Positions 35,596 to 62,903 of a stretch of DNA of 64,000 bases are shown here, in pieces; within the stretch, counting starts at the first letter, position 1; the number at the start of each line of letters is the position of its first letter. The translations under genes were made by a program, and so were the position numbers. Location of the stretch: positions 15,509 through 79,508 of the IMG/VR virus record IMGVR_UViG_3300049173_000078, one strand, 5' to 3'. Source of the DNA: a virus. The notes under the pieces were generated by a model, which was given only the letters and a program-made list of their open reading frames with translations, had not been told where the DNA came from and did not search any database.

Positions 35596-35626
35596 CGGCC
35601 CAAAACCAGCAGCGGCCCCCAGTTTA
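35596..35626 (-). promoter_or_regulatory. Late promoter element, copy 1
   Basis: TAAACT then GCTGGTTTTGGGCCG. Confidence 0.6.
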
Positions 35627-35663
35627 GGGCCCGGCGATCACGCGCCCGGAGCCCTTGCGGACG

Positions 35664-35993
35664 TCAGTCGATGTCGATGACGCCGCCGGGATCGAGGATC
35701 GGGCCGGTCGGCGGCGTGTACCCGGAGAGACGCTGAGCGACGGCGTCCGGCAGGATCGCGGCGAGCGCGAGGTACGCGACCTTCGCCTCGGCCTCTTCGG
35801 CCTCCTGCTGCTCGGCAACCGCCGCGGCGCGCGTCTCCTCGATGACGCCGAGCGCGGCGGCGTACTCCTCGGGCGAGATCAAGACCGCCCCGTCCGGAGT
35901 GGGCAGGCTCATGCCCTCGGAAAGCGTCACCTGACGGATCCGCCCGTCGGTGAGCTGGTAGTAACGCGTCGTCGTGGTGGTGGTCTCGTCCAC
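35664..35993 (-). CDS. Tail-fibre chaperone-like protein, paralog B
   Basis: Paralog of 34562..34852. Confidence 0.55.
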   Translation of the reverse strand: MDETTTTTTRYYQLTDGRIRQVTLSEGMSLPTPDGAVLISPEEYAAALGVIEETRAAAVAEQQEAEEAEAKVAYLALAAILPDAVAQRLSGYTPPTGPILDPGGVIDID

Positions 35994-36007
35994 AGCACAG
36001 GCCCCGA

Positions 36008-36859
36008 TCAGCTCAGAGGGATGGAGAACAGCCACGCGCGGATGGTGGCCTGGACTCGGGTATACGTCGCGCCCGCGGCGCCCCGGTCCGCCGTGACAGC
36101 CAGGCTGATGGTCTGCGTCCCCCCGGCCGGAATCACGAGGTTGTGCTGCACGCTGTGCTGCGAGTGCCACGACGGGATGGCCTGACTGCCGCTGTTCTTG
36201 AGGTAGTTCACCTCGTCGCCGTTGATACCCGAGGCCGCGGCGCCACCGTTGGCCGGAAGCTGGAACTCGACGTCGACCTGCCGCCACGCGATCACGAACG
36301 CGTCGCGGCACGGGTCCGGGTTGGTCATGGTGACGCTTATGGTGTCGATCGTCGCCTCGGTGGCCGGCACCGCGTTGTTCGACGAGAACACGTCGTTCAC
36401 GGCCACCTCGCGGTAGCGCGCCCGGAACGGCGGGTCGGTCTTGAGACGGCCGTTCGACGAATCGCAATAGACGTCGCCGCCGTTGGCGGTGATGGCGCAC
36501 GCGAAGGGCCACGTTCCGACATTGACCCGCAGGGGCGCGCTGCCCGAGCCGTCGCCGAGCAGGCCGCAGCCGCGCTGCACCGTCGCCGCGCCCGCCGGTA
36601 CGAACAGGCCGTTCGCGTCGACGACGAGATTGTTGCCGGGCGTTGACGAGATGTCGGCGCCGATGACGCCGGTCGCCGAGTCGAAGGTGATCCCCGGGCC
36701 GGCGGATATGCATCCGCGGACCTCGGCGCAGTTCGTCACCGCGTTCACGACGTACGGGTTCGCCGTCGACCCGGCGCCCGTGACGCTCGTGTTGTCCCCG
36801 GCCTGCACTACGCAGTTGCAGCCGCCCCCGCCGCACTGACACCTGGCCAAGACGACCAC
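36008..36859 (-). CDS. Tail fibre or minor tail protein, paralog B
   Basis: ARCQCGGGGCNC, TSVTGAGSTANPYV, CGLLGDG, WPFAC.I.ANG..VYCD. Confidence 0.6.
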   Translation of the reverse strand: MVVLARCQCGGGGCNCVVQAGDNTSVTGAGSTANPYVVNAVTNCAEVRGCISAGPGITFDSATGVIGADISSTPGNNLVVDANGLFVPAGAATVQRGCGLLGDGSGSAPLRVNVGTWPFACAITANGGDVYCDSSNGRLKTDPPFRARYREVAVNDVFSSNNAVPATEATIDTISVTMTNPDPCRDAFVIAWRQVDVEFQLPANGGAAASGINGDEVNYLKNSGSQAIPSWHSQHSVQHNLVIPAGGTQTISLAVTADRGAAGATYTRVQATIRAWLFSIPLS

Positions 36860-36880
36860 CTCTCAGGGTGCGTTCTTGGC

Positions 36881-36913
36881 CCGGCCCACAACCAGCGGCT
36901 ACCGCTCAGTCTA
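36881..36913 (-). promoter_or_regulatory. Late promoter element, copy 2
   Basis: TAGACT-N9-CCGCTGGTTGTGGGCCGG. Confidence 0.7.
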
Positions 36914-36935
36914 AGACGCGGCGATTAGCGGCAGG

Positions 36936-37655
36936 TCAGCCGTAGAGGTGCACGAGCACGCGGCCGTCAGCGCCCGCTCCGCCGTCGACGGCCCCTCCGA
37001 AGGAGACGGCGCCGCCCGCTCCTCCACCAAAGCCGCGCGGCCCGAGCCCATTGCCCTGCGCTGACCGGCCCAGGCCACCAGTGCCGAGGAACGAGTCGCC
37101 GCCGAAGCCCGCCATGGCGGCGGTCCCAGACAGGCGGATCGCCGACCCGGAGGCGCCGCCGCCGAGCGCGAAGTCACCGGTTCCGGCGAACGGGCCCGCG
37201 ATGCCCTGAGAGGTGCTCGGCGTCGTTCCTGACGGCATGTTGTTGGTGCCGCCGCTCCCGCCCGGGGCGGTGACGAGGCTGCCGAAGGAGGACGCTTCGC
37301 CGTCACCGCCGTCGGTGGCCGACGTGCCCGCGGTTCCACCTGCACCGACCTTGATCGGCACGGACGCGGGGAGGTCAGCGACCTCGATCAGCGACTTCGA
37401 GTAGCCGCCGCCCGTGCCGCCCGGCCTGGCGACCGCCTCGCCCGTGTCGGCGTTCGCGCCGGCCGAGCCGCCGCCGGCGCCCTGGACCTCGACCTCGACC
37501 CGCGCGAGCCACGGATAGTTGGCCTTGTTGAACGTGAACGTGCCCGCCGGAAACGACAGGGTCTGCCGCAGGCCCTGCGTGCCCGGCTTCAGGCACAGCT
37601 CACCAGAGGCCGGGTTGACGGTGAAATAGGTTTCGCATGCACAGGCGCGCGCCAT
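36936..37655 (-). CDS. Glycine-rich minor tail protein
   Basis: VEVQGAGGGS, GGTGGGY, VGAGG, G.S.FG glycine-rich tail domain. Confidence 0.7.
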   Translation of the reverse strand: MARACACETYFTVNPASGELCLKPGTQGLRQTLSFPAGTFTFNKANYPWLARVEVEVQGAGGGSAGANADTGEAVARPGGTGGGYSKSLIEVADLPASVPIKVGAGGTAGTSATDGGDGEASSFGSLVTAPGGSGGTNNMPSGTTPSTSQGIAGPFAGTGDFALGGGASGSAIRLSGTAAMAGFGGDSFLGTGGLGRSAQGNGLGPRGFGGGAGGAVSFGGAVDGGAGADGRVLVHLYG

Positions 37656-37682
37656 CGAAGCCCCTCGGGGAGTCGCACGTGC

Positions 37683-37714
37683 CCGGCCCACAACCAGCGG
37701 CGACGATCAGCTTA
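37683..37714 (-). promoter_or_regulatory. Late promoter element, copy 3
   Basis: TAAGCT-N8-CCGCTGGTTGTGGGCCGG. Confidence 0.7.
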
Positions 37715-37733
37715 CGGCGGACGTCTGTGCGCC

Positions 37734-38231
37734 TCACAGGCCCGCAGCGAGGGCACCAGGCGGTTTCGGGACGGCAGCCGGCTCCCCGCTCGCCGTGAGG
37801 TGCACCTGAACGCCCGCCGCGGCAGGGACGAGCGGCAGCACGCCGAGCCCCAGGAGGGGCTGTGTCGCCCACACGCGGACCGTCACGCTCGTCGCCGACA
37901 CGGCCTCCAGTGCCGCCGTCACCGTGCGGTCGTCGGCCGGGTTGGGGTCGACGGCGAGTGCGCTCATGACGGGTGGCGCGGTGAACGGCGTCTCGAAGGT
38001 CCACAGGGCGCGGCCGTCGGCGCCGGTCACGACGACCGCCGCGGCAGGCGGTGCGCCGCGCTCGCCGCGCGGCCCCTGCTCGCCAGGCGGTCCCGGCTCC
38101 CCTTGCGGTCCCACCTTGCCTTGGGGTCCTTGCGGGCCGCCCTTGCGGCCGGTGCGCTCCAGGTCGCGCAGCACGCCGCCGAGCGGGTTGTCCGGCAGGC
38201 GCCGCGACGCCGGTCCCCTGTACGCCATCAC
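37734..38231 (-). CDS. Short collagen-repeat minor tail protein
   Basis: GPQ/GEP triplets then WTFETPFTAPPV beta domain. Confidence 0.65.
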   Translation of the reverse strand: MMAYRGPASRRLPDNPLGGVLRDLERTGRKGGPQGPQGKVGPQGEPGPPGEQGPRGERGAPPAAAVVVTGADGRALWTFETPFTAPPVMSALAVDPNPADDRTVTAALEAVSATSVTVRVWATQPLLGLGVLPLVPAAAGVQVHLTASGEPAAVPKPPGALAAGL

Positions 38232-39265
38232 ACGTCTCCTTCAGCGCTCACAGGCCCGAGCTGGACCTTCACCGACTCGCCGGTCCCGTCGGCCGTCACG
38301 TGCAAGCCGGTGATCTTCATGCGCTGCGACACGTCGCGGCAGGTCGTCGTCGTCGCGAAGTCGACGCACCAACCAGGCACCGCCCGCGCGACGTCGAGGC
38401 CCGCGTCCGAGGACAGGGTGACCTCTTGCGTGTCGATGTAGACCGGCACGGGCAGCGAGGCGTTCAGCCGCGACTGCGCGGCGGCGGCCGCCGATTCGTT
38501 GTCCATGATCGAGGTGTCTTGGATGCTCCGCTCGATCAGCCCGTAGTACGGGTGGACGCCGCCGGCGACGCCCTTCACGCCGCTGCCGTCGCTGCCGTAC
38601 ACCACCCACCGCGTGGCGAGCGCCGTCCCGTCTTCGGCGACGCTCAGCCCCTCGGGCAAGTCGGCGTCGGTCAGCAGGCCCACGCTCGCACTCCAGTCGT
38701 CCGGCAGCAGCAGGATTGAGTTGCCGACGGCGGTGAAGTCGAGGCCCGTGTCCGCGAGGTCTTTCAGGTGGTCGCCGGTCTGCCCGATGTCCAGCGTGTA
38801 TTCGCGCGCCCCGGACACCCCCGATTTCGCGAGGACGTTCACCGTGTGCCCGGGGTCGTCGGGCAGGAAGCCGTCCTCGATCAGCCACGTCGCGATGTCC
38901 GTCAGGTCGGTGCTCGTGAACGCCCGCGACTCGTGCGGCGTGCGCCGGTTGAGGATCGCGATGATGTCCGCGGCGTTGATCTCGAACCCGCCGAGGCTCC
39001 ACTCCGCCGTCAGGATCGGCCCGCCCCACACGTAGTCGCCGTTCCGGTAGATGTGCAGCCAATTGCGCCACGACCGGACGTCGCCGAGCGTCTCGCAGCA
39101 GTCCAGGTCCGGGACGACGACGACGCGGCCCGTCGACGCGTCGTTCAGCACGCGCGTGAACTCGACCTCGGTCACGGTGACGAGGTTCGACACGATCGCG
39201 CCGTCGCGGTCCGCGACGACCGCGTGATACTCCGCCGCGCACCCGAGCCCGCTCAGCCCGGCCAT
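38228..39265 (-). CDS. Minor tail protein (hub/Tal-like)
   Basis: Second gene after the tape measure; LHIYRNGDYVWGGPI. Confidence 0.75.
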   Translation of the reverse strand: MAGLSGLGCAAEYHAVVADRDGAIVSNLVTVTEVEFTRVLNDASTGRVVVVPDLDCCETLGDVRSWRNWLHIYRNGDYVWGGPILTAEWSLGGFEINAADIIAILNRRTPHESRAFTSTDLTDIATWLIEDGFLPDDPGHTVNVLAKSGVSGAREYTLDIGQTGDHLKDLADTGLDFTAVGNSILLLPDDWSASVGLLTDADLPEGLSVAEDGTALATRWVVYGSDGSGVKGVAGGVHPYYGLIERSIQDTSIMDNESAAAAAQSRLNASLPVPVYIDTQEVTLSSDAGLDVARAVPGWCVDFATTTTCRDVSQRMKITGLHVTADGTGESVKVQLGPVSAEGDV

Positions 39266-40584: not shown

Positions 40585-40621
40585 GGTCGACGCTCCTCAC
40601 GCTCGTGCTGCTCGGCGCCGG

Positions 40622-43600
40622 TCACGCGAGCCTCGCCTGTGCCAGCCGCCGCAGGACGATCCGGGCGGTCTTCTCGGGGTCCTCCGCGGCCTGGATGTTC
40701 CAGTTGTTCGTGACGGCCGCCCCGCTGCTCGTGGGCGACCGGCGGGCGCCGCGGATCAGGTCGGCGACGCTCGACGCGTCGGAGGCTCGCGCGCGGCTCG
40801 ACCGGGTCAGCGGGACCGTGCCCGAGCCGGCCGCGAGCGTCGGCGTCACCACGGGTCCGGCGATCTGCGCGCCGAGACCGGCGAGCGGCTTCGTCGCGGC
40901 GAGCGCGACCACCCGCGCCGCCTGCCGCGTCGACTCCTGCAACGCGCCAAGCCGGTCGAGGAGACCTAGCTGCAAGCCCTGCCCCGTCTGGTCGCCGATC
41001 CGGCGGAACACGACCGACGGCGACTTGATCCCGAGGGCCTTACGGATCGCGGTCTGCATGGACTTGGCGATCTTCAGCATCAGGTCGTCGATGTCCTTTT
41101 CCTGCGCCTTGAGGCCGGCGAGGAAGCCGCGCGATGCCTGCTTGCCCGCGTCGAACAGGTCGTCGGCGGCGTTCTTGCCGAGCGTGTTCGTCGCCGACAC
41201 GAGCTGCGACTGAAGGCTGTTGATCCGCTTCAGCGTGCTCGCCGACTGGTCGGAGAAGAACGTCGCGAGCTGCGCCCCCTGCTGCGGCCCGAGCCCGATG
41301 ATCTGCTGGAGCAGGTCCTTGCGCAGGCCGCGCTTCGACAGGCTGTCGATCTGCTTCGTGAAGTTCTTCACCTGCGAGACGGCGCTGTCGAGGCCCTCGG
41401 TGATGTTGAACAGGTTCACGCCGCCCTGGGTGAGGTTCTGAAGCGAGAACCCCTGGAGGGCGGAGGCGGCCGTGTTCGTGGCGAACGTCTGCGCGTCGGC
41501 GATTCGCTTCGCGATCGCGTCGCGCTGATTCGCGAGCGACGTCAGCCGTTTGTTGCCGTCGGCGACGAGCTTCAGCAGCGTGTCGTCGAGTTTCGTCTTC
41601 TTGCCCTTGAAGGCGTCGCGGATGTCCGCCGCGATCTTGTCGGTGGTCTGCTTGATCTCCGCCGCGCTGCCGGTCAGGCCGATGACGAAGCCCTTGCCTG
41701 TGTCGCGGCCGATCGCGATGAACACCTTCGACGGCGAGCCGATCTTCAGGACGTTCTTCGCCGCGCTGATCGCCGACGACACGACTTCCTTCGCCGCCGA
41801 CGCGACCTGCCCGGCCATCGCCCGCACGCCGCTGATCAGGCCACGCACCAGGTCGCGGCCGACGCCCGCCAGGGCGGACGAGGCACCCGACAACGCGCCG
41901 CGGATTCTGCCTGGCAGACCAGTGAAGAACGAGGTCACCTGCGAGCCTGCGGAACGCGCGGCGCTCAGCATGGCCGAGCCCGCCGAACGGAACACCGACG
42001 CGAGTCGGCCCCCGAGCGCCGACAGCGCCGACGCCGCTCGCCCCGGCAACTGCGAGACGAAGCTGACCACGGACGAGATTCCCGCCGAGGTGGCCGCCCG
42101 GGCGGACGCCCACGCCGAAGTGAACCGCCCCGCGATCGTGGACCCGAGCGCCGCGAGCGCACCGCCGATCCGGCCTGGTAGCTGCTGGAAGAACGACAGC
42201 GTGGCCGAGATACCGGACGAGACGGCGGTCGTCGCTGCCGCCCAGGCGGAGGTGAACGCGCCGGCGATGGTCGACCCGAGCGACACGAGGGCCTGGCCGA
42301 TCAGGACCGGCAGCCGCACGAACGGGAAAAGCACGAGGCCGATCAGGGTTCCGATCACCGTGCCGATCAGGGACGGCAGCGCTTGCAAGCCGGCGAGTAT
42401 CAGGCCCGGCAGGGTCGTGAAGAACGTGACGACGGCGCTGAAGCCTGTCGAGATCAGTGCGCCGATCTGCGCGGGGAGCGCCGACAGGAAGGTGACGACG
42501 GCGTTGAACCCAGTTACCACCAGGTTGGGGAGCGTCGTCGTGAAGAACGCGCCGATCGTTGTCCCGAGGCTGGAGAAGAACGAGCCGATGCCGGACGCGG
42601 CGCCGCTGACGGAGGCAACGAGCGAGGTGAAGGCGGCGCTCACCGTGGCGGGCAGGGCGGTGATGAACGTGACGACGGACGTGATGCCCTGGACGAGGCC
42701 GGTCAGCGCGCTGACGATGCGCGTGATGATCGGTACGACGGCGTTCAGGACGAGCCAGCTCTCAAAGCCGACTTGGGCTTGCAGGAGCGGCGTGATCAGC
42801 GACAGGACCATGCCGACGAGTGGGGAGAGCGCCGTCGCGAGGTCGGCGACCGGCTGGACGAGCGGCAGGACCGCGTTGAAGACGGCGAGCAGAGCGCCCG
42901 TCAGGGTCGGCAGCAGCGGCAGGAGCGCGCCTGTGAGCTGTGTGATCAGGGGTACGACCGCGTCGACGACCTGGCCGATCGCGTCGGCGATCGGGGGCAG
43001 CGCGGGCGCGAGCTGGGTGAACAGGTCGGCGACGGCTTGGCCGACGCCGGTCACGAGCGGAGTCAGCGCGGTGACGAGCGTGGTGAACGCGTCCGCCAGG
43101 GGCGGAAGAATCGGCATCAATGCGGACACAAGCGCCGAAATGATTGGAGCGAACGCTTGTGCGAGGGCGGACAGAACGGGGGCGAGCGCCTGCGCGAGGA
43201 CGGACACGAGTTGACCGGCGAGTGGCAGCAGTGGGGCGAGGCCAGTGACGACCTGGGCGATCGCCTGCCCGAGCGGGCCCAGGCTCGGGCCGATGGCTCC
43301 GAAGGCGTCAGCGAGGGCGACGGCGACGGTCTGGAGGCTCGGCGCGATCGCCGCCAGGGCGGGCCCGAGCGCGTTGACCAGGCCCACGACGGCAGGGCCG
43401 AGCGCGGTGAAGACGGGGGCCAAGGCGGGCGCGATGGCGCCGAGTTGCGTCACGAGCGCGGCGAGGATGGGGCGGAGCTGTGCCCCGATCGTCGCCACGG
43501 TGGCGAAGAGGTTCCCGATCGCCGTCTGGCCCTGCGTGCTGTTGACGAAGTCGGAGAGCTGTTGCGTGACTTGCTGGATCGTGCCCAGCACGCCGGCACC

Positions 43601-44869
43601 CGCGCCGGCCGCCGCGTTCGCGATGCCGCTGAACGCCGTTCTAAGGTTGCCGAGGATGTCGCCGAGCTGAGCGAACACCGTGAGCGCCTGGTCCACCCAG
43701 CGCACGGCGTCGCCGCCCTGGGCGGCCTGCTGGAGGAACTCTCCGAATCGCTGACCGGCGTTCGCGATGCCGCCGGCCAGCTCGGCGCCGAACGCCTTCG
43801 ACACCGCCGCGGCGACTTGAAGGATGCCCGCGGTCAGCTTGTTCGTGGTCTGCGACAGGCCCTCGACGCTGAGCCCGGTCGCGTCGAGGATGGCCCGCAC
43901 GTTGGACACGCCCTGCGTGCCCTGTATGTAGCCGAGCACGCCCTTCGCGGCGTCGCCCCACGCGGCGGCGATCCGGGTCAGCCCCGACTGCAAGGGCCCC
44001 TGTAGGGCTTGCGCCGTCTTCGTGATCTGCCCGGTGATCTGCTCGAAGAAGGCGTCTTGCACGGACGTCTTGAGGTCGTCGAACGCGGGCTTCAGGGCGC
44101 GGACTTCGAGGGCCGCCGCCTGCGCCGCCGGGCTGAGCTTCTCAAGGGTCTTCTGGAATGCCTCGGCGTCGCCCGTGAGCGCGGCAGAGAACGAATCCGC
44201 GACCCCGTCGAGCGCCAACTTCAGAGTGCCGAGCGCCGCCTGATACCCGAGGATGACCGCCGGGCCCGCCGCGATGATGCCGACCGCCGGGGCCAGGGCC
44301 GCCGTCAAGGCGATGACGCCCTGTGCGGCGCCCGCCGCGGCAATACCGATCGCGCCGAAGGCGAGACCCTTCGCGAGGATGCCGCCGACGCTCCCCGCGA
44401 TGCGCCCGAGACCGGCCAGGGCCCGCGTGAACCGGTCCGAGTCGACGTTCGTATTGACCGTGACGTCGGGCGGCCTGTGTGCCCGTATGCGGGCGTCGAA
44501 GGTGTCGAGGTCGGGAACGACCCGGATCGAGACTTCTTGGTCGGCGAGCGCGGCACGCAGCCGCGTCATGAACTGATCCAGGTTCGGCGCTACCGGGATG
44601 TTCAGCGTGTCGATACCGCGAAGGCCGTTGAGGAGCTGCGCGTCGAACCGGCTCAGGTCCGGGTTGACCTGTACCGAGACACTGACGTCGCGAAGACCAC
44701 GTTCGATGTTGCCGCGGATCCGAGCACCGATACCGATGGTCGCCCGGTCGAGCGCGGCCCGGATCCTGGCGCCCAGCAGCCGCGCATCCGCGATGACGCC
44801 CGTGTCGTCGAGCGTGATCGTGATCCGAGCGGACCCGTAGTCCTCGCTGTCGCCGGCCGGGGTGGTCAC
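40622..44869 (-). CDS. Tape measure protein
   Basis: 1415 aa Ala/Leu-rich helical repeats; LKIGSPSKVF and LGIKSPSVVF motifs. Confidence 0.95.
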   Translation of the reverse strand: MTTPAGDSEDYGSARITITLDDTGVIADARLLGARIRAALDRATIGIGARIRGNIERGLRDVSVSVQVNPDLSRFDAQLLNGLRGIDTLNIPVAPNLDQFMTRLRAALADQEVSIRVVPDLDTFDARIRAHRPPDVTVNTNVDSDRFTRALAGLGRIAGSVGGILAKGLAFGAIGIAAAGAAQGVIALTAALAPAVGIIAAGPAVILGYQAALGTLKLALDGVADSFSAALTGDAEAFQKTLEKLSPAAQAAALEVRALKPAFDDLKTSVQDAFFEQITGQITKTAQALQGPLQSGLTRIAAAWGDAAKGVLGYIQGTQGVSNVRAILDATGLSVEGLSQTTNKLTAGILQVAAAVSKAFGAELAGGIANAGQRFGEFLQQAAQGGDAVRWVDQALTVFAQLGDILGNLRTAFSGIANAAAGAGAGVLGTIQQVTQQLSDFVNSTQGQTAIGNLFATVATIGAQLRPILAALVTQLGAIAPALAPVFTALGPAVVGLVNALGPALAAIAPSLQTVAVALADAFGAIGPSLGPLGQAIAQVVTGLAPLLPLAGQLVSVLAQALAPVLSALAQAFAPIISALVSALMPILPPLADAFTTLVTALTPLVTGVGQAVADLFTQLAPALPPIADAIGQVVDAVVPLITQLTGALLPLLPTLTGALLAVFNAVLPLVQPVADLATALSPLVGMVLSLITPLLQAQVGFESWLVLNAVVPIITRIVSALTGLVQGITSVVTFITALPATVSAAFTSLVASVSGAASGIGSFFSSLGTTIGAFFTTTLPNLVVTGFNAVVTFLSALPAQIGALISTGFSAVVTFFTTLPGLILAGLQALPSLIGTVIGTLIGLVLFPFVRLPVLIGQALVSLGSTIAGAFTSAWAAATTAVSSGISATLSFFQQLPGRIGGALAALGSTIAGRFTSAWASARAATSAGISSVVSFVSQLPGRAASALSALGGRLASVFRSAGSAMLSAARSAGSQVTSFFTGLPGRIRGALSGASSALAGVGRDLVRGLISGVRAMAGQVASAAKEVVSSAISAAKNVLKIGSPSKVFIAIGRDTGKGFVIGLTGSAAEIKQTTDKIAADIRDAFKGKKTKLDDTLLKLVADGNKRLTSLANQRDAIAKRIADAQTFATNTAASALQGFSLQNLTQGGVNLFNITEGLDSAVSQVKNFTKQIDSLSKRGLRKDLLQQIIGLGPQQGAQLATFFSDQSASTLKRINSLQSQLVSATNTLGKNAADDLFDAGKQASRGFLAGLKAQEKDIDDLMLKIAKSMQTAIRKALGIKSPSVVFRRIGDQTGQGLQLGLLDRLGALQESTRQAARVVALAATKPLAGLGAQIAGPVVTPTLAAGSGTVPLTRSSRARASDASSVADLIRGARRSPTSSGAAVTNNWNIQAAEDPEKTARIVLRRLAQARLA

Positions 44870-44899
44870 CGGGCACCCTCACGAATTCGTGAACGGTGC

Positions 44900-44918
44900 C
44901 CGGCCCATAACCAGTCGG
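44900..44918 (-). promoter_or_regulatory. Late promoter element, copy 4 (variant)
   Basis: CCGACTGGTTATGGGCCGG; the TAATCT hexamer is further upstream (44958-44953). Confidence 0.55.
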
Positions 44919-44955
44919 CGAGCAGCAGCGCCGGGGCGCTGCCGTGATCTCCAGA

Positions 44956-45330
44956 TTATCCGCTGCGCCGGCTCGTGAGCCGCGCATCTTCGCTCGCGAC
45001 CTGGGACATGAGCGCTCGCGCCGCGTTCAGGTCCATCCGTGGACCGGCCGGTCGCGGCCGTGCCCCGCTCGTCGCCTGCCTACGAGCAGAGCGCGGCGGC
45101 GCGTACAGCGTCGTCCGGTTGCGCTGCCTCTCGGCGTCGTCTTCCGCCGCCGCGTCCATCGCGGATTCGGCGGCGTTCAGCATGCGCCTTAGCGTCCACG
45201 CGTGCGGGTCGACGCCTTGGAGGGCGAGGCTCCCGTCCCACGAGTCCCAGCCGGCCGTGATGCTGTCGCAGAGGCGGAAGACGACGTAGTAGGGCGGTCG
45301 CCACCTCCCCCGTAGAGCTCGACGACCCAT
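44956..45330 (-). CDS. Tail assembly chaperone, C-terminal (frameshifted) part
   Basis: -1 frame overlapping the chaperone, directly before the tape measure. Confidence 0.7.
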   Translation of the reverse strand: MGRRALRGRWRPPYYVVFRLCDSITAGWDSWDGSLALQGVDPHAWTLRRMLNAAESAMDAAAEDDAERQRNRTTLYAPPRSARRQATSGARPRPAGPRMDLNAARALMSQVASEDARLTSRRSG

Positions 45331-45731
45331 TCGAGGAGCTCGACGATCACCCGCGTCGGGAAACGCAGGTCGTCGACGACGCGCCGGCCCGGCCGCTCGG
45401 CGGCACAGGCCTCGGCCTCGGCGAGGTCGTCGTACGAGGCGAGCACCTCGCCGGACGAGTCGACGACGTTCACACGGAGGAACTTCGCCGCTGACTCGGG
45501 CAGCATCTGCCGGGCGAGGAACACGCGCAGCGCGCGAACCGTACCGCGGACGACCGACGGGTCCGCCTCGCTCAGGTTGTCCAGGTCGACGCCCTTCGAC
45601 TGCTGCGCGTCACGCATCTCGGCGTAGGCGTCCATGAACTCGTCGCCCATGACCTCGGGCTGAAATTCGAGCTCGATGTCGCCGATCTCGGCGACGTGTG
45701 GCTGTGTGTTCAGGGCAAAGGATTTACGCAC
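45189..45731 (-). CDS. Tail assembly chaperone
   Basis: Position, acidic composition, slippery site near the 3' end. Confidence 0.75.
   Translation of the reverse strand: MRKSFALNTQPHVAEIGDIELEFQPEVMGDEFMDAYAEMRDAQQSKGVDLDNLSEADPSVVRGTVRALRVFLARQMLPESAAKFLRVNVVDSSGEVLASYDDLAEAEACAAERPGRRVVDDLRFPTRVIVELLEWVVELYGGGGDRPTTSSSASATASRPAGTRGTGASPSKASTRTRGR
45306..45312 (-). other. Putative -1 programmed frameshift site CGGGGGA
   Basis: TAC GGG GGA in the chaperone frame becomes CGG GGG AGG in the -1 frame. Confidence 0.55.
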
Positions 45732-45758
45732 AGGTCTTCCCTGTCTCCCGCTCCTCGC

Positions 45759-45792
45759 CCGGCCCACAACCAGCGGCGCATGAGGAAGGGTA
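45759..45792 (-). promoter_or_regulatory. Late promoter element, copy 5
   Basis: TACCCT-N10-CCGCTGGTTGTGGGCCGG. Confidence 0.65.
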
Positions 45793-45817
45793 TCCGCGTG
45801 TGCCAACATGCGGTGAC

Positions 45818-46030
45818 ATGAGGCAATGGCAGCAGGAACAGCCAGACGACGGGCTGGACGAGGAAGAAATCGAGACGCTGAACTCGGGCGCTTACGCCGA
45901 CGCGAGCGATGCAGAGATCTGCAAGGCGTCCGACCTCGGCGACCCCGTCGCATACGAGATCTTCGAGCGCTGGCCGAAGGAACGCCGCCAGGCCGCCACC
46001 CGAGCAGTAGACGCAGCCGATCAGGGCTGA
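45818..46030 (+). CDS. Small acidic protein, antisense moron in the tail operon
   Basis: 70 aa with 18 D/E; fills a 250-bp gap that has no convincing minus-strand gene. Confidence 0.55.
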   Translation: MRQWQQEQPDDGLDEEEIETLNSGAYADASDAEICKASDLGDPVAYEIFERWPKERRQAATRAVDAADQG

Positions 46031-46040
46031 CATCGGCAGG

Positions 46041-47026: not shown

Positions 47027-47038
47027 GGCGGGGCCTCC

Positions 47039-47848: not shown

Positions 47849-47881
47849 CTCAGGCCCTCTCGTCGACGTGGGGTGGGAACG

Positions 47882-47917: not shown

Positions 47918-47943
47918 TGTGGCCGCTCAGGAAGCCCACCGGG

Positions 47944-48624
47944 TCACGGCGTGGCCGGGACGGTCGCGTAGTCACACGACGGGACCGGCGGCGGCGTGGT
48001 GGTGATGAACGTCCGGCGGTGGCAGGACGCGTCGAGCGGGGTCAGCATCGGGCCCGGGGTGCCCGCGGCGTCGGCCGGCTGCACGTCGTAGGGGCCGACG
48101 CCCCACGAACCGCCCGCCTTGGTCGAGCCGGTGATCTGGAGCGTGACGGCTTCGCTGCCGATCTCCAGGTCGCCGAGCAGGCCGTTACTGACCCACGGCA
48201 GAAGGAAGTAGATCCACTGCCCTTCGGCGCCTTCCTCGCACTCGTTGCCGAGGACCTCGGCCCACAGCTCCAGCGCGAAGCCCGAGTCACACTTGACGGA
48301 GCAGGTGTCGAAGCCGATCGGCTTCCCGTCGAACCCCAGGTAGACGGGGTTACCGGTGAGGATCTCGATCAGCTCCGGGGAGACCGAGAACACGTTCAGT
48401 TCAAGATCGAATCCCCGGAACGTCGGACAGCCCTTCTTGTAGCCGCACACGCGGCCGTTGGCCGCCTTGTACTCGATGTCGTCGCCGTCGTCGGAGTTGT
48501 TGTTCATCGCCAGGCTGGCGAAGCAGTCGAAGACGAATCCGTTGAGACCGGCGACTGGATTCCCGCACTGGTCGAGGCGCGTGACGCGCATGACGTCGGC
48601 GTTGGCAATGAGCGGACAGGACAC
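47944..48624 (-). CDS. Major tail protein
   Basis: RVTRLD.CG, F.LELW, W.VGPYDV; has its own promoter element and terminator. Confidence 0.75.
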   Translation of the reverse strand: MSCPLIANADVMRVTRLDQCGNPVAGLNGFVFDCFASLAMNNNSDDGDDIEYKAANGRVCGYKKGCPTFRGFDLELNVFSVSPELIEILTGNPVYLGFDGKPIGFDTCSVKCDSGFALELWAEVLGNECEEGAEGQWIYFLLPWVSNGLLGDLEIGSEAVTLQITGSTKAGGSWGVGPYDVQPADAAGTPGPMLTPLDASCHRRTFITTTPPPVPSCDYATVPATP

Positions 48625-48653
48625 GGCCGCACCCTCCTGAAGGATCAGAGGGC

Positions 48654-48687
48654 CCGGCCCAAAACCAGCGGCTCAACGTTGAGTTTA
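48654..48687 (-). promoter_or_regulatory. Late promoter element, copy 6
   Basis: TAAACT-N10-CCGCTGGTTTTGGGCCGG. Confidence 0.7.
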
Positions 48688-52147: not shown

Positions 52148-52160
52148 GGCGCGCCTCTCC

Positions 52161-59300: not shown

Positions 59301-59647
59301 ACGCACCACAGCTCGCTGTAAGTGGTGTCGGCGAGGCCGTCGCCGTTCGTGTCGTCGCAGCGCTGGACGCACACCGTCTCGGCGCACGCCGTCGAGCACG
59401 AACCGCAGCCGGTAGGCGCGGGTCCAGCCGTGAAGATGCCGGTGGTCGGGTCGGTCCAGCCGGCGACCTCGGGCGGGAACACGGTCCCGCCGCAGTCGGC
59501 GCACGGCGAGCGCAGCACGACGAGGATCATCCGGCCGTCGTCGCAGCAGAGCGGCTGTGCGGTGATGGACGGCGAGCAGCAGGCGTCACCGGTGCCGCCG
59601 CCTCCGCCGCCGCCTCCGCACGAACAGGGGGTAGGGACGAGTGCCAT
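56384..59647 (-). CDS. Giant Cys-rich modular repeat protein B (putative head fibre or decoration)
   Basis: Same modules as protein A; ATG overlaps upstream TGA. Confidence 0.8.
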   Translation of the reverse strand: MALVPTPCSCGGGGGGGGTGDACCSPSITAQPLCCDDGRMILVVLRSPCADCGGTVFPPEVAGWTDPTTGIFTAGPAPTGCGSCSTACAETVCVQRCDDTNGDGLADTTYSELWCVRDDGTTSLLLTYQDDPSTPYAPVAPVDCEHGSMACHTQLLCDDSGPFLRRFTFVSDGTAGYVDVALDGEAPHVVMGTVRDCSQTSDCEQPREPAATVGLCLADGTPIAVVVTRDCQGVTREEGWINLTTGAYSTGQPPAGTVACGESRSISTTGTFCDVDANGNVVGLVLIEYTYAADGSVSSVRLVDATTGQAYTAQGTITTCPAGVDQPEQDLVVLCDIAADGTVTRFIRDFRRDENGQIVGHTDYTLAGAPYTVTGTVGQCPTEVPGPVPVIPQVFHGELVLCDDNGPFIRKLVQDAAGAVTAVVSLTLDGAPYTPVGTVAQCVPEAEPCRTASTLLVCDLPSGGEPTPTVSDTNPTAYQGAGLGAEPLPGGAAALWSGGAITIPADTGPGPGHINQHLRSVAANLQAERPGCDTGTATITASIRVQRTGPSSAFGGNGIWSLWSGGTRVAVVTTPNNAPVGYTGTLTVSGQVSAADVAAGDVHLASALETWHTAAHVGGWIVDQFTARVVYDQAGCETQFLRSVTLDCDGAVTAVTDTTLDGDPYEPTGEVGQCTPASTPPATEPCRNASTLLLCDLPADGAPTPTLTDTPGAPYYPYTTGVATPGAQALWDGGTLTLPAASGPQPGTGGTVRTAAAVIQAPRPVCDAGTAHVTVQVDVTQLGPDNGCRATGFLGLYNGPGDANRVGLALAPPDTPAGWTGTLTAEADVPAADLAAGNIAVVVAFDAYDDSGATCPPPRRTGWQLDEFAATVVYDQTGCDTQFLRNVTTDCETGAVVSVTDTTLDGEPYTVTGEPGQCQAGGGECCPEPPCPARNIVQAERCDDTDGDGIADAWYVELLGVDCTGTPTSLGTYTCDLSTPYTPVAPVDCDTPDPVVERPVGVQAHRVQLAPGKVWDASQYGTLRAVQATARGGTGTVITADGTSTLFDGETAQWSITRDMDVRLIGPLTITATTGAVVVNWTEGVDL

Positions 59648-60291
59648 CAGCGGGCCCCCTCCGTGTGCGCCTGTCGGCGGTGGGTGTCCCGGCCGCGCCG
59701 GGTGTCGAACTCGCGCGGGCACAGGTCGCACTGCCACGGCCCGGCGTTCCCGTCGCCCTCGGCGGGAGTGGTGGTCGTGTCGCTGCTGCCCCCTCCGACA
59801 GCAGCGCTCGTCGACTCATCACGCGCGGCGTTGGACGCGGCGAGTTCGGTTGCCACCGTGACGGCGTCCATGGCGCGCTGGATCGCCTCGGGCGGGGTGG
59901 CGGCGACCATCGCCGCGGCGTCCGCTTCCGGGTCGCCCACGCTCGTGCTCTCGACGACGGCCGCGCCGTCGTCGCCGGGCTCGGCGGAGGCGGGCGGGAG
60001 CGGCACGGAGCCGGGCGGGTACGCCGACTCGGGGACGGGCGGCAGCGGTTCGCCGGGCACGGCGGTGAGCATCCCCGCCTCGGGGTCGGCGTCTTCGAGC
60101 GGCGAGCGGTACCGCTGCCCGTCGACGAGCGAGCCGACGAGCAGGTCTTCCGGCATATCGGCGAACAGGTCCGGGGGGACCGCGTACGCGTCGTGCGAGC
60201 ACTTGCGGACCATGGGGGTCTGCTCGATCGCCCACAGGGCGAAGTCGCCGCGGACCCGGGCGGCCGGCTGTACGCGAATGGTCGTCAGCAC
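59647..60291 (-). CDS. Protein with C-terminal C2H2 zinc finger
   Basis: WQCDLCPREFDTRRGRDTHRRQAH. Confidence 0.7.
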   Translation of the reverse strand: MLTTIRVQPAARVRGDFALWAIEQTPMVRKCSHDAYAVPPDLFADMPEDLLVGSLVDGQRYRSPLEDADPEAGMLTAVPGEPLPPVPESAYPPGSVPLPPASAEPGDDGAAVVESTSVGDPEADAAAMVAATPPEAIQRAMDAVTVATELAASNAARDESTSAAVGGGSSDTTTTPAEGDGNAGPWQCDLCPREFDTRRGRDTHRRQAHTEGAR

Positions 60292-61121
60292 GGGCACACC
60301 GCCACCCTGATGGCCGCCGCCTCGCAGCACGCCGTTTCGACGACGAACGTCCGCTCGGCGAGGACGAACCGGTCGTTCGTCGCGATGCGCACGGCCTGGC
60401 TGTCGGAGTCCGGCACGATGACCGGCTGCTCGCGGCGGACCCGCACGGGCCCGGTGATGTACAGCCACGCCTCGCCGTCGGGGGCCTGCGTACAGGCGGC
60501 GCCGCCGATGTTCAGGGCGTAGCCCGCGCCGAGGACGACGCAGTTGCCCATGAGGGTGCGGGGCGCGCCCTGGTCGAGTTCGACGACGCGGCAGCAGCCC
60601 ATGAGCGCCGCCGCGCCTGCGGGGACGTGCAGCACGCCTTGCCCGCCGTACGCCTCGGCGAGCCATCCTTCGAGGGCGGCGACGCCCTGCGCGATCGACA
60701 CGGCGCCGGCTGCCGGGGTGAGGTCGTTGCCCTGCGCCATTTCGCAAAGCTGCTCGCGCATGAACCACTCTTCGAGCGCGCGCTGTTCGCCGAGCGCGAG
60801 TGTTTCGCTGGCCTGCGTCACGGCGTCGTCGTACGACCAGCCGATCGCCGAGCAGGTCGCGCCCGCGTAAATCGTGATCGGTGGTGCCGAGCACGAGCCG
60901 GGCCGGTCGAAGGTCTTCGTGCTCGGGCCGGGCGGCGTCGCCGGGTCGGGGCACCAGTCCCAGTCATGCGCGCCCGCGCACGACAGGGGCATCCACTCGG
61001 TACCGAGCAGCTCGTGTTCGTCGGTGGCGTCGACGACCTCGACGCAGTCCCCGAGGATGCCGTGAGGCAGAGGACGGCCGCGGATGGCCTCGACGCGCTT
61101 ACGAAGTCCTGCCGAAGGCAT
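60285..61121 (-). CDS. Second capsid-type protein (putative major capsid pentamer protein)
   Basis: Directly after the major capsid gene; GVAALEGWLA..YGGQGVLH pattern recalled from two-capsid actinophages. Confidence 0.5.
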   Translation of the reverse strand: MPSAGLRKRVEAIRGRPLPHGILGDCVEVVDATDEHELLGTEWMPLSCAGAHDWDWCPDPATPPGPSTKTFDRPGSCSAPPITIYAGATCSAIGWSYDDAVTQASETLALGEQRALEEWFMREQLCEMAQGNDLTPAAGAVSIAQGVAALEGWLAEAYGGQGVLHVPAGAAALMGCCRVVELDQGAPRTLMGNCVVLGAGYALNIGGAACTQAPDGEAWLYITGPVRVRREQPVIVPDSDSQAVRIATNDRFVLAERTFVVETACCEAAAIRVAVCPC

Positions 61122-61194
61122 CTGCCGTACCTCCTATGTCCGTGCGCGGCCCCGGCCGGCAGATGGCGCGGGGCCGTTACGGTGTGAGGGGTTG

Positions 61195-62841
61195 TCAGGC
61201 GATCGGGCAGGCGGGGACGGCGCGCGGGCCGACCGAGCCGTCCGCGCAGACCGGGACGGTCACGCGCCGCGACTCGATGCCGCGGTTGACGAGGGCGACG
61301 CACTCTTCGGCGAAGATCGCGGTGAAGTCGTTGGTCGCGAAGCGGTTCGAGTCGTGGACGACGCCGAGGTTGATCTCCGCGCCGCGACCGAGCTGGAAGT
61401 TGCCCGTCGGGTAGATGAGGAACTCGACGTCGGCCGGCCAGGTGGTCGCCGGGTTGGTGCCGCCGATGTTGGTCGGGACGTCGGGGACGAGGCCCTTCGC
61501 CCACTGGACGCGGACACCGAGGGTCGCGAAGGCGTCCTCGATGCAGTTCGCGGGCAGGTCGCAGACGTCGGTGTTCGAGCGGCGGGCGATGTCCGCGAGG
61601 AACATCCCGCGCGACCACCACGGGAACACGACCTCCAGGCCGATCCGCTCACAGAGCGAGTGCTTCTCCACGATGTCGGCGACCTGGAGGGCCACGGCGC
61701 CGTAAACGGCGCTGAACGACGCGAAGGAAGTGGGCACGGTGACGGCGGTCGACGCGTTGCGGGCCTGCTCGTACAGGGCGCGGCGGATCCGCATCTCGTG
61801 CGCCACCATGACGTTGCGCTGGTACCAGTTGACCAGCTCCGGGAAGTGCCTGGACGTGAGGATGCCCGCCTCAAGGCAGACGCCGACCGCGTCGCAGCGG
61901 ACCTCGATCGGGTCCGGGCAGGGGATGCGGAAGCAAGGTTTCGTCGGTCCGCCCGGCGTGGCCGCTGCCTCGTCCTGCGCTTCGGTCCAGATCCACGTCA
62001 TGGCGTTGACGTCGAGCGTCGGGGTCTGGAAGAACCGGATGCCGCCGCGGCTGAGCTGGATCTCGGGAAGGTCCCACAGGCCGTCGGGGCACGCGATGTC
62101 GGTGATGTCATAGATCGTCTCGGACGGCGCACACCATCCGCCCGAAGCGATGAGGTCAGCCTTCGGGAGGCGCCGCTGATCGGCTGCCTTGACGACGGCG
62201 TTCAGGCCTTCGCCCGGGTTGCCGGGGTCGGCGACGACCAGGCCGCTCGTCTCGTCGAACGGCAGCCGGTACGACGCGACGATGCCGGTTCCGCCACCCG
62301 AGGACGCGAGCGCGCCCGCGCGCTTGATGATGCCCTCGGTCAGCGTCTCCATGGAGATGCCCTCGCCCGGCGCGACGCCGGGCATGTCGACCGAGGCGAC
62401 GATCTCGGGGGCATTGAGCTTCGGCACCTGCGGCATGAGCTGACGCGGCGCGCGCTGCCGAACTGAGTTGAGGGTGACGACCGGACGGCGAGGCGTCGCG
62501 GACGCGGCGACGGCGGCCGGCTCGTCCGCGACGACGGTCTCACTCCCGGCGGCGTCGGCGGCCTCGGCCGGCTCGTCGCCGGTCGCGGTGTCCTCGCCGA
62601 GGACCTGCGCGGCCAGCTGGTCGAGTTCGGCCTGTGCCTGCTGCGCCTCGCCGATCAGCTCGGTCTGCCGGCCGCGCATGGCCTCGATACCGGCGGCGAG
62701 TTCGCGCAGGGCGGGCAGGTCTTCGGTGGTGAGGTTCGGGTCGCTGCGCCGGGCCTGGAACGCCTCGGTCGCCTCCGTGATGTGCGCGTCGAGGTCCTCG
62801 GCGCTCAGGCTGGTGATGTCGTCGGGCAGTTCGTAACCCAT
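61195..62841 (-). CDS. Major capsid (hexamer) protein with N-terminal scaffold-like coiled coil
   Basis: GGWCAPSETIYD, LPEIQLSRGGIRF, KPCFRIPCP; follows the protease; has its own promoter element. Confidence 0.85.
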   Translation of the reverse strand: MGYELPDDITSLSAEDLDAHITEATEAFQARRSDPNLTTEDLPALRELAAGIEAMRGRQTELIGEAQQAQAELDQLAAQVLGEDTATGDEPAEAADAAGSETVVADEPAAVAASATPRRPVVTLNSVRQRAPRQLMPQVPKLNAPEIVASVDMPGVAPGEGISMETLTEGIIKRAGALASSGGGTGIVASYRLPFDETSGLVVADPGNPGEGLNAVVKAADQRRLPKADLIASGGWCAPSETIYDITDIACPDGLWDLPEIQLSRGGIRFFQTPTLDVNAMTWIWTEAQDEAAATPGGPTKPCFRIPCPDPIEVRCDAVGVCLEAGILTSRHFPELVNWYQRNVMVAHEMRIRRALYEQARNASTAVTVPTSFASFSAVYGAVALQVADIVEKHSLCERIGLEVVFPWWSRGMFLADIARRSNTDVCDLPANCIEDAFATLGVRVQWAKGLVPDVPTNIGGTNPATTWPADVEFLIYPTGNFQLGRGAEINLGVVHDSNRFATNDFTAIFAEECVALVNRGIESRRVTVPVCADGSVGPRAVPACPIA

Positions 62842-62870
62842 GACCGCGTCTCCTGTGACTGCAAGGAGAC

Positions 62871-62903
62871 CCGGCCCATAACCAGCGGTCGAAAAGAATC
62901 TTA
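62871..62903 (-). promoter_or_regulatory. Late promoter element, copy 7
   Basis: TAAGAT-N9-CCGCTGGTTATGGGCCGG. Confidence 0.7.

Follow-up and report, generated by a model that had tools for sequence, protein, structure and literature searches.

Seven late genes of this temperate, Streptomyces-type phage are preceded by copies of a 21-nt element (consensus GCCGCTGGTTNTGGGCCGGGC). Its base changes indicate that it works as a hairpin, P1, of the sense RNA, located where late transcripts are predicted to begin. The promoter-coupled cassette built around P1 appears to be a hitherto undescribed, portable unit of late-gene control; it has been found in hundreds of related prophages from three orders of actinomycetes. 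Late-gene control is poorly understood in actinobacteriophages (large SEA-PHAGES collections, many Streptomyces prophages), and the element, delimited to single base pairs, provides a precise and widespread handle on it. A literature search for the element sequence returned no paper containing it. With 4227 Rfam covariance models at the gathering score, a tRNA was the sole match in the window, and a permissive Rfam scan over three sites matched nothing at those sites.

The window, the whole 64,000-nt stretch analysed here, is part of an 88-kb genome. It carries seven same-strand copies of the motif, versus 0.04 expected by chance, all on the minus strand and oriented with transcription (7/7; Table 1). 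The initial annotation had placed each of them in an intergenic gap, on the coding strand, ahead of the capsid, major tail, chaperone, tape measure and three fibre genes. This description holds for every copy: the gaps measure 78–310 nt, and the gene identities agree (major head, major tail, the chaperone-position gene of phrog_12617, tape measure, and three fibre-like genes that are glycine-rich and Cys-tagged). The 18-mer delimited in that annotation is exact in five copies and has two mismatches in the other two, and all seven share the 14-nt core CTGGTTNNGGGCCG without a mismatch. The early region, where no copy had been seen, is also empty according to the covariance model, which finds nine matches in the whole genome. 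Two further copies lie outside the window, in tandem on the opposite strand, at genome positions 85794 and 85837. The start codon comes about 44 nt further on (at +42 to +46 in most family sites), with 25–30 nt between the end of the element and the start codon.

Table 1. Predicted components of the late-gene cassettes in the window.
Feature	Position	Strand	Remark
-10 hexamer TAAGAT, capsid-gene cassette	62898..62903	-	TAnnCT/TANNNT class
P1 hairpin ACCGCTGGTTATGGGCCGGGT, before major head protein gene 61195-62841	62869..62889	-	compensated A-4:U16 pair
P2 region, capsid leader	62833..62876	-	folding
-10 hexamer TAAACT, major-tail cassette	48682..48687	-	
P1 before major tail protein gene 47944-48624	48652..48672	-	
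-10 hexamer TACCCT, chaperone-position cassette	45787..45792	-	
P1 before gene 45189-45731 (phrog_12617, tail-assembly-chaperone position)	45757..45777	-	
-10 hexamer TAATCT, tape-measure cassette	44953..44958	-	extra GC hairpin GGCAGCGCC..GGCGCTGC between hexamer and P1
P1 variant, 2-nt bulge, CCGACTGG, before tape measure gene 40622-44869	44898..44919	-	
-10 hexamer TAAGCT, cassette of gene 36936-37655	37709..37714	-	
P1 before fibre-like gene 36936-37655 (Gly_rich_2, phrog_863)	37681..37701	-	
-10 hexamer TAGACT, cassette of gene 36008-36850	36908..36913	-	
P1 before Cys-tagged fibre-like gene 36008-36850	36879..36899	-	
-10 hexamer TAAACT, cassette of gene 34866-35567	35621..35626	-	
P1 GCTGCTGGTTTTGGGCCGAGC before Cys-tagged gene 34866-35567	35593..35613	-	compensated U-2:A14 pair

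The promoter features reported with the copies are likewise present. A TANNNT hexamer ends 7–9 nt before the first paired base of P1 in six of the seven copies, a spacing that becomes the 8–10 nt originally given when it is counted to the 18-mer. In the tape-measure copy, TAATCT lies 34 nt upstream and a GC hairpin intervenes, a layout also present in relatives; a hexamer therefore accompanies all seven. The consensus over 107 family sites, which had been chosen by their T at hexamer positions 1 and 6 and their A at position 2, is TAnnCT; position 5 is C in 91 of them, a G often stands two bases before the hexamer, and the distance to the element is 6–11 nt. The absence of a conserved -35, noted in the window, extends to the family: no information content for a -35 element (NTGACC/TTGACN) was found 30–40 nt upstream in the 107 sites, and a sigma-70 consensus scan gave 0 sites. 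TANNNT is the Streptomyces -10 motif (PMC4895711), and the hexamer class is promoter-like, resembling an actinobacterial housekeeping-sigma promoter reduced to its -10. Host RNA polymerase with the housekeeping sigma factor would start 0–5 nt before P1, which would then open the message; in 83% of sites the predicted 5´ overhang is 0–4 nt.

Covariation had been suggested in the initial annotation as a test for RNA structure, and the flanks of the element do covary as base pairs among 104 distinct copies. P1 consists of the pairs -4:16, -3:15 and -2:14, a bulged G, the pair 0:13, a bulged U, and the pairs 2:12 and 3:11, closing a 7-nt loop, UUNUGGG. Pair -4:16 is GC in 93 of the distinct sites, AU in 7 and GU in 1; pair -3:15 is CG in 92, UA in 9 and UG in 3; and pair -2:14 is CG in 79, UG in 18 and UA in 4. 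Furthermore, pair 0:13 changes from C:G to A:U in loci L289, L299 and L328, and to U:A in locus L322. G–U pairs are tolerated (22 cases) and A–C pairs are absent (0), and the covariation score was reached by none of 500 shuffles. Because the flanks covary, with G–U tolerated and A–C absent, the element is read as a hairpin of the sense-strand RNA. On its own P1 is weak: at -5 to -9 kcal/mol it is no more stable than shuffled sequence, which fits a recognition site better than a stability clamp. Its unpaired loop and bulge bases are the most conserved part across the three host orders. Among the three options first offered for the element, this strand-specific pattern favours an RNA leader and disfavours a DNA-bound activator, and a Q-like pause finds no TANNNT-like word in the motif.

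The distribution of the cassette points to the virion module as its vehicle. Six relatives carry 8–9 copies per genome, all on one strand, and in five relatives 43 of 43 copies are co-oriented. Virion-module genes are the only genes that motif-carrying genomes have in common; no early genes and no repressor were shared in a comparison of the carriers. In three host genomes the strong matches are confined to one prophage region each. By these genomic comparisons, the cassette travels only with the virion module. The proposal of a phage-specific late system is therefore only partly upheld, since the early regions of other carriers share nothing with that of this phage. For the same reason, the WhiB, HTH and C2H2 proteins put forward as regulators are not conserved partners. 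At least three loop types exist, and natural compensatory variants are known; in the Woodruffvirus (cluster BG) phages, a variant keeps the stem and has a different loop. One temperate carrier is in culture and open to experiments, Streptomyces phage TurkishDelight (host S. scabiei RL-34); the annotated start of its tailspike gene overlaps the motif. In new prophage annotations, the element marks the starts of virion genes.

Folding, with partial covariation, predicts a second structure over the ribosome site. Element nucleotides 9–16 can pair instead with the Shine-Dalgarno and start-codon region about 25–30 nt downstream to form P2. This hairpin and the 3´ strand of P1 share nucleotides in 94 of 95 sites, and the P2 fold gains about 9 kcal/mol in stability over a fold in which P1 is enforced. 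The start codon lies inside P2 in about two thirds of sites. With P1 enforced, the start codon is paired in 33 of 95 sites instead of 62, and the Shine-Dalgarno is still about 60% paired. In the capsid leader, the 5´ arm of P2 (GGCCG.GUCUCC) overlaps the P1 3´ strand, and the 3´ arm contains the Shine-Dalgarno GGAG and stops just 5´ of the ATG at 62841. The variant bases U16 and A15 have compensating partners downstream, which represent few independent events in a setting where folding programs find canonical pairs by construction. Against controls in which the leader was shuffled or one half of the motif permuted, P2 gains only 2.6–4.2 kcal/mol in stability, and swapped P2 arms still fold well in this GC-rich RNA.

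Tentatively, each copy is taken as the core of a self-contained late-gene cassette, in which a promoter-coupled leader RNA switch acts on translation and message stability and is read by a trans-acting factor. P1 would be the docking site of this factor, which could be encoded in the virion module or belong to the conserved machinery of the host, the 30S subunit for example. Once bound, the factor would hold P1 closed, stop P2 from zipping over the start codon and permit translation, and P1, as a 5´-terminal structure, would shield the message from 5´-end-dependent decay. Without the factor, the leader would collapse into P2 and the gene would be quiet. The first late operon (membrane protein, portal, zinc-ribbon protein and MuF-protease) is without the cassette, and the head-operon promoter combines the phage's own phased TGCGCAGTGC operator with a TACCAT hexamer. 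Only this promoter would need to match the resident switch, with the remaining virion genes using the portable cassette. That the cassette also stands before the gene of a low-copy protein, the tape measure, speaks against the switch reading.

As for the reader, no universal factor was found among the genes shared by the carriers. In 7/7 full genomes, the portal and MuF genes flank a WCxxCKA zinc-ribbon gene, which is likewise placed in 23 of 26 type-A-like loci with enough flank. This candidate is not universal, being missing from four (L305, L307, L327 and L304) of about 27 loci that have a type-A-like leader and sufficient flank and from every Woodruffvirus-type locus, and no RNA-binding homology was found for its product. 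A more elaborate proposal, possible but unlikely, is that P1 is the handle of a portable, module-intrinsic system. Here, the bulges and the invariant loop (NNNURGG) with which each major structural message begins would be recognised by a reader, be it a conserved host machine (for example the 30S platform or RNA polymerase) or a small protein of the virion module. The reader would toggle the leader between closed (P2) and open (P1) states, allowing the module to move between unrelated early circuits and three actinomycete orders. The two opposite-strand tandem copies, which lie in a non-coding region, would provide a decoy RNA titrating the reader in the manner of a CsrB-type sponge. Should a reader of the hairpin come to light, it would account for the way in which the virion module keeps its own expression logic while recombining with unrelated early regions, and the cassette would supply a compact promoter-plus-leader part for Streptomyces gene expression.

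The invariant unpaired bases of a promoter-proximal RNA would also suit a cis-acting signal that modifies the transcribing RNA polymerase, either P1 alone or P1 with the next hairpin, acting like HK022 put, which needs no protein, or like lambda boxB with an N-type protein. Polymerase would then resist pausing and the terminator-like hairpins between virion genes. Conservation in hosts of three orders without a conserved phage regulator fits a host target such as RNA polymerase, and tandem copies occur. The GC hairpins directly 5´ of the capsid-gene cassette, present in this phage and in relatives, could be terminators, and a second hairpin directly follows P1 when P1 is enforced, recalling the two stems of put, although this second stem is not conserved in sequence. 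However, antitermination needs neither tight start-codon spacing nor overlap with the ribosome site, and a promoter plus P1 before nearly every unit would make read-through redundant. In the Woodruffviruses, P1 lies between the chaperone and tape-measure genes rather than at operon heads. The search for U-tract terminators between units found none, only the GC hairpins; neither a boxA element nor an N-like protein was identified, and no N-like protein is conserved among the carriers. Moreover, P1 (21 nt) is far shorter than put (about 70 nt). Antitermination is thus judged improbable.

A similarly low probability is given to a plain high-expression leader, with neither switch nor dedicated partner, in which P1 would be a 5´-terminal stem-loop blocking 5´-end-dependent RNases, its sequence being kept as a good initially transcribed region. 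The short predicted overhang, the position of the cassette before the main virion building blocks and the failure of the search for a factor are all in keeping with this, and T7 class III transcripts also start with a conserved stem-loop. Nevertheless, a stabiliser needs a strong stem rather than invariant loop and bulge bases, whereas P1 is weak and conserved above all where it is unpaired; moreover, where copies are in tandem, the second is internal to the leader instead of 5´-terminal.

That the element is a double-stranded DNA site directly after the start point is very unlikely, whether as a stoperator-like operator, as an activator site or as a Q-type signal for engagement or pausing. 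Its position just after the -10 hexamer is fixed, and the asymmetric sequence, the strict orientation with transcription and the dispersed copies resemble cluster A and R4-like stoperators, but strand-specific covariation of the kind seen in P1 is not expected of such a site. The distance to the hexamer varies from 6–11 nt up to 34 nt with an inserted hairpin, second copies have no promoter of their own, early regions are without copies, the repressors and early genes of the carriers are unrelated, and a sigma-dependent pause would lack its TANNNT-like word. Finally, a long conserved block before late genes without a -35 element could itself be a promoter, or promoter part, for an alternative sigma factor or phage RNA polymerase, but the variable hexamer-to-block spacing, the lack of any sigma factor or polymerase gene common to the carriers and the RNA covariation leave this barely credible.

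The preferred reading, a leader switch read at P1, can be set against several known systems. In Cluster A mycobacteriophages and R4-like Streptomyces phages, the phage repressor binds stoperators, DNA sites that occur in the early as well as the late arm. The element shares with them dispersed, asymmetric sites in short gaps, all co-oriented with transcription, but it has no early copies and no shared repressor, and its signal is at the RNA level. A repressor stoperator identity is rejected, as the genome-wide spread is missing and the carriers share no early genes. In cluster K, the SAS is a 13-mer, GGGATAGGAGCCC, that lies 3–7 bp from the start codon, holds the ribosome site and precedes non-structural genes only, and the ESAS inverted repeats of these mycobacteriophages show no RNA covariation (PMC3203893, where stoperators are named as well). 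Both systems are multi-copy, asymmetric, one-orientation repeats in actinophage intergenic gaps by gene starts. However, the present element stands 25–30 nt from the start codon, before virion genes only, is coupled to a promoter and covaries as RNA; with sequence, distance and gene class all different, it does not belong to the SAS/ESAS family.

Among RNA-level systems, the T4 late genes e, soc, 49 and I-TevI have a hairpin that masks the ribosome site, with the late promoter inside the hairpin, so that late transcripts are made without the masking arm. The timing of a late protein is set by a structure over its ribosome site, as proposed here, but the predicted transcript start of the cassette is upstream of both arms. 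HK022 putL/putR and lambda nut (boxB) are short, cis-acting, promoter-proximal hairpins with invariant unpaired bases, conserved for recognition and not for stability. P1 has the same character of a sequence-conserved, promoter-proximal RNA hairpin, but put and nut occur at two sites per genome, in early operons, with no tie to a start codon; put has about three times the length of P1, and the element keeps a fixed distance from the ribosome site. In the com-mom system of phage Mu, the ribosome site lies in a stem-loop, a small recognition structure immediately 5´ overlaps it, and binding is thought to open the ribosome site. Mu has one such site, whereas there are 7–9 per genome here, each with its own promoter; there is no sequence similarity, and the zinc-ribbon gene, the candidate for a small zinc-finger RNA-binding activator of the Mu kind, is not universal. 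The Mu system nevertheless acts on late functions, as the cassette is proposed to do, and folding predicts for the cassette a similar ribosome-site stem-loop overlapped by a putative 5´ recognition structure, P1.

The 18-mer CCGCTGGTTNTGGGCCGG, searched with up to two mismatches, was found in seven copies in the window, all on the minus strand, against 0.04 expected, and its 14-nt core CTGGTTNNGGGCCG is exact in every one of them. Two further exact-core copies lie beyond the window, arranged in tandem on the plus strand of the virus record (88,390 bp, G+C 71%; window, bases 15509-79508). The genes behind the window copies encode the major head protein (phrog_777, E = 3e-156), the major tail protein (phrog_792), the protein at the tail-chaperone position (phrog_12617), the tape measure protein and a glycine-rich fibre-like protein (PF21722, phrog_863); the remaining two are Cys-tagged proteins without family match. 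Coordinates, hexamers and start codons of all window copies were checked directly. In six copies the hexamers are TAAGAT, TAAACT, TACCCT, TAAGCT, TAGACT and TAAACT, each ending 7-9 nt 5´ of the first paired base of the element. At the tape-measure copy the hexamer is TAATCT, set 34 nt upstream and separated from the element by a GC hairpin, a layout that recurs at the tape-measure genes of relatives. The initial annotation had described seven late-gene copies, a TANNNT hexamer before six of them and no conserved -35; all of this is borne out, with the seventh copy also having its hexamer and no -35 signal being present among the 107 family sites that were anchored on the core for a conservation profile.

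The conserved block in this profile is GCCGCTGGTTNTGGGCCGGGC, from position -4 to +16 (position 0 being the C of CTGG), and conservation of 1.0-1.8 bits extends to positions beyond the searched core. Alignment of the sites on the hexamer gives TAnnCT as the -10 element, with C at position 5 in 91 of the 107 sites and a frequent G two bases before the hexamer. TANNNT has been reported as the -10 motif at 80% of mapped S. coelicolor transcript starts, where the median leader is 44 nt (PMC4895711). The hexamer is separated from G-4 by 6-11 nt in most sites, so that transcription starting about 7 nt after the hexamer would place P1, the 21-nt hairpin of the element (positions -4 to 16), 0-5 nt from the 5´ end of the message. 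In most sites the start codon follows between +42 and +46, most often at +44.

The folding of P1 is supported by its outer pairs. In counts that include related sites and thus are not independent events, with variants standing before different genes and in different lineages, pair -4:16 is GC in 93 cases, compensated AU in 7, G-U in 1 and unpaired in 3; pair -3:15 is CG in 92, compensated UA in 9 and G-U in 3, with no non-pairs; and pair -2:14 is CG in 79, compensated UA in 4, G-U in 18 and unpaired in 3. The covariation score and the number of double changes at these flanks were matched by none of 500 shuffles, and shifting the partner by one column halved the pairing. A complement faces every A at positions 14 and 15 and seven of the eight T at position 16. 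Across the flank pairs G-U occurs 22 times and A-C never, an asymmetry that only folding of the sense strand as RNA would lead one to expect.

Since the search pattern prescribed the core, the inner pairs are invariant in that set, and inner variants were therefore taken from a survey based on the capsid protein. AUGG...CCU at loci L289, L299 (two copies) and L328, and UUGG...CCA at L322, change pair 0:13 from C:G to A:U and U:A. From the outside inward, the complete structure has three outer pairs, G-1 as a bulge, pair 0:13, U1 as a second bulge, then G2:C12 and G3:C11, closed by a loop of 7 nt. Folded in isolation, the copies of this phage mostly adopt it, weakly (-5 to -9 kcal/mol) and not better than shuffled sequences, so the signal lies in conservation and covariation, not in stability. 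It is probable that the element works at the RNA level.

A P1-type leader precedes the capsid gene in all 44 closest capsid relatives (48-83% identity); in capsid relatives at 31-36% identity the leaders are unrelated. The loop is UUNUGGG (type A) in about 25 of the 44 and CGNUAGG in about 14, the latter being the cluster BG or Woodruffvirus phages Xkcd426, Mischief19, phiSAJS1 and their kin. Loci L326 and L303 carry UGCUAGG, and locus L304 an 8-nt loop. All loop types share the 3´ half of the loop (URGG), the bulges and the stems. In three Woodruffvirus genomes the variant is found only before the capsid, major tail and tape measure genes, each copy preceded by a TATCAT, TAGACT or TATCCT hexamer, and the stems pair through G-U or compensated pairs, such as U-2:A14 in Mischief19.

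Downstream, a predicted alternative hairpin, P2, shares the 3´ strand of P1. In unconstrained leader folds, nucleotides 8-16 and the next variable bases pair with the region of the Shine-Dalgarno sequence and start codon. In 94 of 95 sites the long helix begins no later than position 14, and in about 70% of sites it ends 4-7 nt beyond the first base of the start codon; averaged over the sites, this fold is more stable by 9.3 kcal/mol than the best one with P1 enforced. With P1 enforced, the start codon is paired in 33 of 95 sites instead of 62, and Shine-Dalgarno pairing falls only from 72% to 61%. The variant bases have matching downstream partners (U16 with A in 7/7 sites, A15 with U in 6/8), which suggests that the P1 and P2 helices are both selected and mutually exclusive. 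Real leaders are more stable than shuffled ones by only 4.2 kcal/mol, and than those with a permuted motif half by only 2.6. In the swapped-arm control, the variable arms of P2 alone gained nothing over swapped partners, so what supports P2 is mainly the pairing of the constant motif half with the GC-rich surroundings of the start codon. P2 is therefore no more than a plausible fold.

An exact-pattern scan of IMG/VR matched at least 118 stretches, among which are many Streptomyces proviruses, carrying 3-6 copies per fetched piece. Five full records contain 8-9 copies each (43 altogether), on one strand per record, against one match only for the reversed control pattern. The cultured temperate Streptomyces phage TurkishDelight has nine, preceding the capsid, major tail (two), chaperone, tape measure (two), minor tail, gp32 and tailspike genes. 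Its tailspike gene gp33 has an annotated start that falls within a P1 copy, and the real start is probably about 40 nt downstream.

Scanning bacterial genomes located the cassette (-10 hexamer, P1 and predicted P2 leader heading a virion gene) in prophages of Streptomyces, Kitasatospora, Embleya, Actinacidiphila, Nonomuraea, Planotetraspora, Planomonospora, Sphaerisporangium and Micromonospora. Intragenic, apparently coding matches in Kribbella, Nocardioides, Tsukamurella, Dechloromonas and others were rejected as chance; 20-mer chance matches within genes of unrelated bacteria (loci L171, L226, L199 and L190 among them) would count as false positives in a motif scan of any kind. In three Streptomyces host genomes (7.3-9.6 Mb), covariance-model matches above 32 bits are confined to one prophage region each, on one strand, with all others at 26 bits or less. 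Host mimicry was rejected, since no strong P1 match lies outside the prophage in these three genomes. The element is not used elsewhere by these three hosts.

The search for a protein able to read the element compared this phage with six other carriers of the cassette and three Woodruffviruses. Neither tblastn nor all-against-all clustering of all ORFs revealed a non-structural family common to the carriers in these ten genomes. The genes common to the compared genomes are those of the virion module only, and the complete provirus G003 has no early gene in common with this phage; an early-region regulator therefore cannot be the common reader. On these grounds WhiB, HTH proteins and repressors were rejected, the first two of which had been proposed as candidates in the initial annotation.

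Two families of the virion module were also considered. All 7 full carriers encode the zinc-ribbon protein, with the motif WCxxCKA...CE[IV][CH]DDPD (WCxxCKA invariant), as do 23 of the 26 type-A-like loci whose flanks are long enough. As a universal reader it was set aside, being missing from four loci with type-A-like leaders and full flanks and from all Woodruffvirus-type loci. Pfam gives no match for it and PHROGs only phrog_6832, of unknown function there. Among solved structures, only non-significant likeness was found, to the thioredoxin/PDI WCxxCK motif and the RIG-I C-terminal domain; its AlphaFold model is a beta-hairpin (mean pLDDT 70), with which Foldseek returned nothing. This protein may be related to Cys-rich virion proteins and not to RNA binding. 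The MxCxC family (roughly 50 aa) is encoded immediately 5´ of the capsid cassette in every one of the seven carriers and in two of the three Woodruffviruses; being present in both lineages, it does not discriminate between them and was likewise set aside. Its match to Ogr/Delta (E = 0.25) was discarded, as it is explained by the CxxC motif only.

Features located in this phage and in TurkishDelight (L129); L010 is a piece of the phage genome reaching beyond the window
Feature	Coordinates	Strand	Remarks
tRNA-Met (anticodon CAT)	window 24362-24430	-	Sole Rfam or ARAGORN match in the window
Exact cores of the opposite-strand P1 pair, beyond the window	genome 85794 and 85837	+	
Opposite-strand P1 pair	L010:6383-6462 = genome 85782-85861	+	Two tandem P1, loop UUACGGG; strand opposite all virion genes
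Zinc-ribbon gene	L010:3317-3547	-	76 aa; between portal and MuF genes
Two tandem paralogous MxCxC genes	window 62967-63448	-	52 and 107 aa; start MACAxC, common ...YEVV... core; phrog_17988
GC hairpin GGCCGTG...CACGGCC	window about 62915-62936	-	11 nt 5´ of capsid -10 hexamer; probably the portal-MuF operon terminator
Phased word CGCGCAGTGC-TGCGCAGTAC	genome 85068-85087 = L010:5669-5689	-	Upstream of first virion operon; 10-bp phasing; adjoins TACCAT hexamer
Same word, three early promoters	window 11981-12014, 21627-21646, 26399-26428		
Two small ORFs	L010:5806-6275	+	Diverge from head operon; second 90 aa, arginine-rich
gp33 annotated start, TurkishDelight	30557		Within P1 copy L129:30551-30564

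The first virion operon has no cassette; its products are a DUF1360 membrane protein, the portal, the zinc-ribbon protein, a MuF-protease fusion and the two MxCxC proteins. Judging from the phased word, the head-operon promoter appears to be tied to the resident switch of the phage. This arrangement suggests two tiers of control, with one promoter on the resident switch and seven cassette promoters on the leader of the module itself. GC hairpins lie directly upstream of the capsid cassette in this phage and its relatives, so the virion units may be separate transcripts. The hairpins of the relatives at this site are stronger, one of them (locus L302) having a U-tract.

The opposite-strand P1 pair is located in 1.2 kb of sequence devoid of convincing genes. 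It is framed by two copies of the hairpin CCGCCGCTCGACGGCGG, with TACGTT before it and the long hairpin GACGGCGTCCCTGCAC...GTGCAGGGGCGCCGT after it. The pair may represent a small RNA, act as a decoy or belong to a packaging region; the six other carriers have no opposite-strand copy. The possible ORF that follows the pair was judged non-coding from its low third-position GC (counted by eye) and its lack of a ribosome site. The two small ORFs diverging from the head operon have no family match and no homologue in the other compared genomes.

The element is tentatively interpreted as a leader switch for translation and message stability, the favoured reading although somewhat more likely to be wrong than right; for this switch, we infer the reader, the working competition between P1 and P2, and the transcript start, all three. 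Two explanations rank below the leader switch and are unlikely to an equal degree: that P1 is an RNA modifying RNA polymerase, and that the element is a passive high-expression leader. A DNA site, to be set against the G-U and A-C asymmetry of the stem, is more improbable still, and an alternative promoter is very improbable.

Rfam gives no match for the element, either at gathering score or at a permissive threshold. The sequencing runs found to contain this DNA are all soil-metagenome DNA runs, with none of RNA listed. In the literature, the motif string retrieves unrelated primer sequences only, and a search by phage names gave no paper naming the element. Among cis-regulatory leader RNAs, a general kind already known, the cassette represents an undescribed family. 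The defining features of the Cluster K SAS/ESAS and of stoperators are not found in it. In its proposed working it comes closest to the com-mom switch of Mu, and in its placement it resembles the nut and put RNAs. What is unusual in the cassette is the presence of 3-9 promoter-coupled copies per genome, together with a strict tie to a mobile virion module and near-invariance over hosts of three orders.
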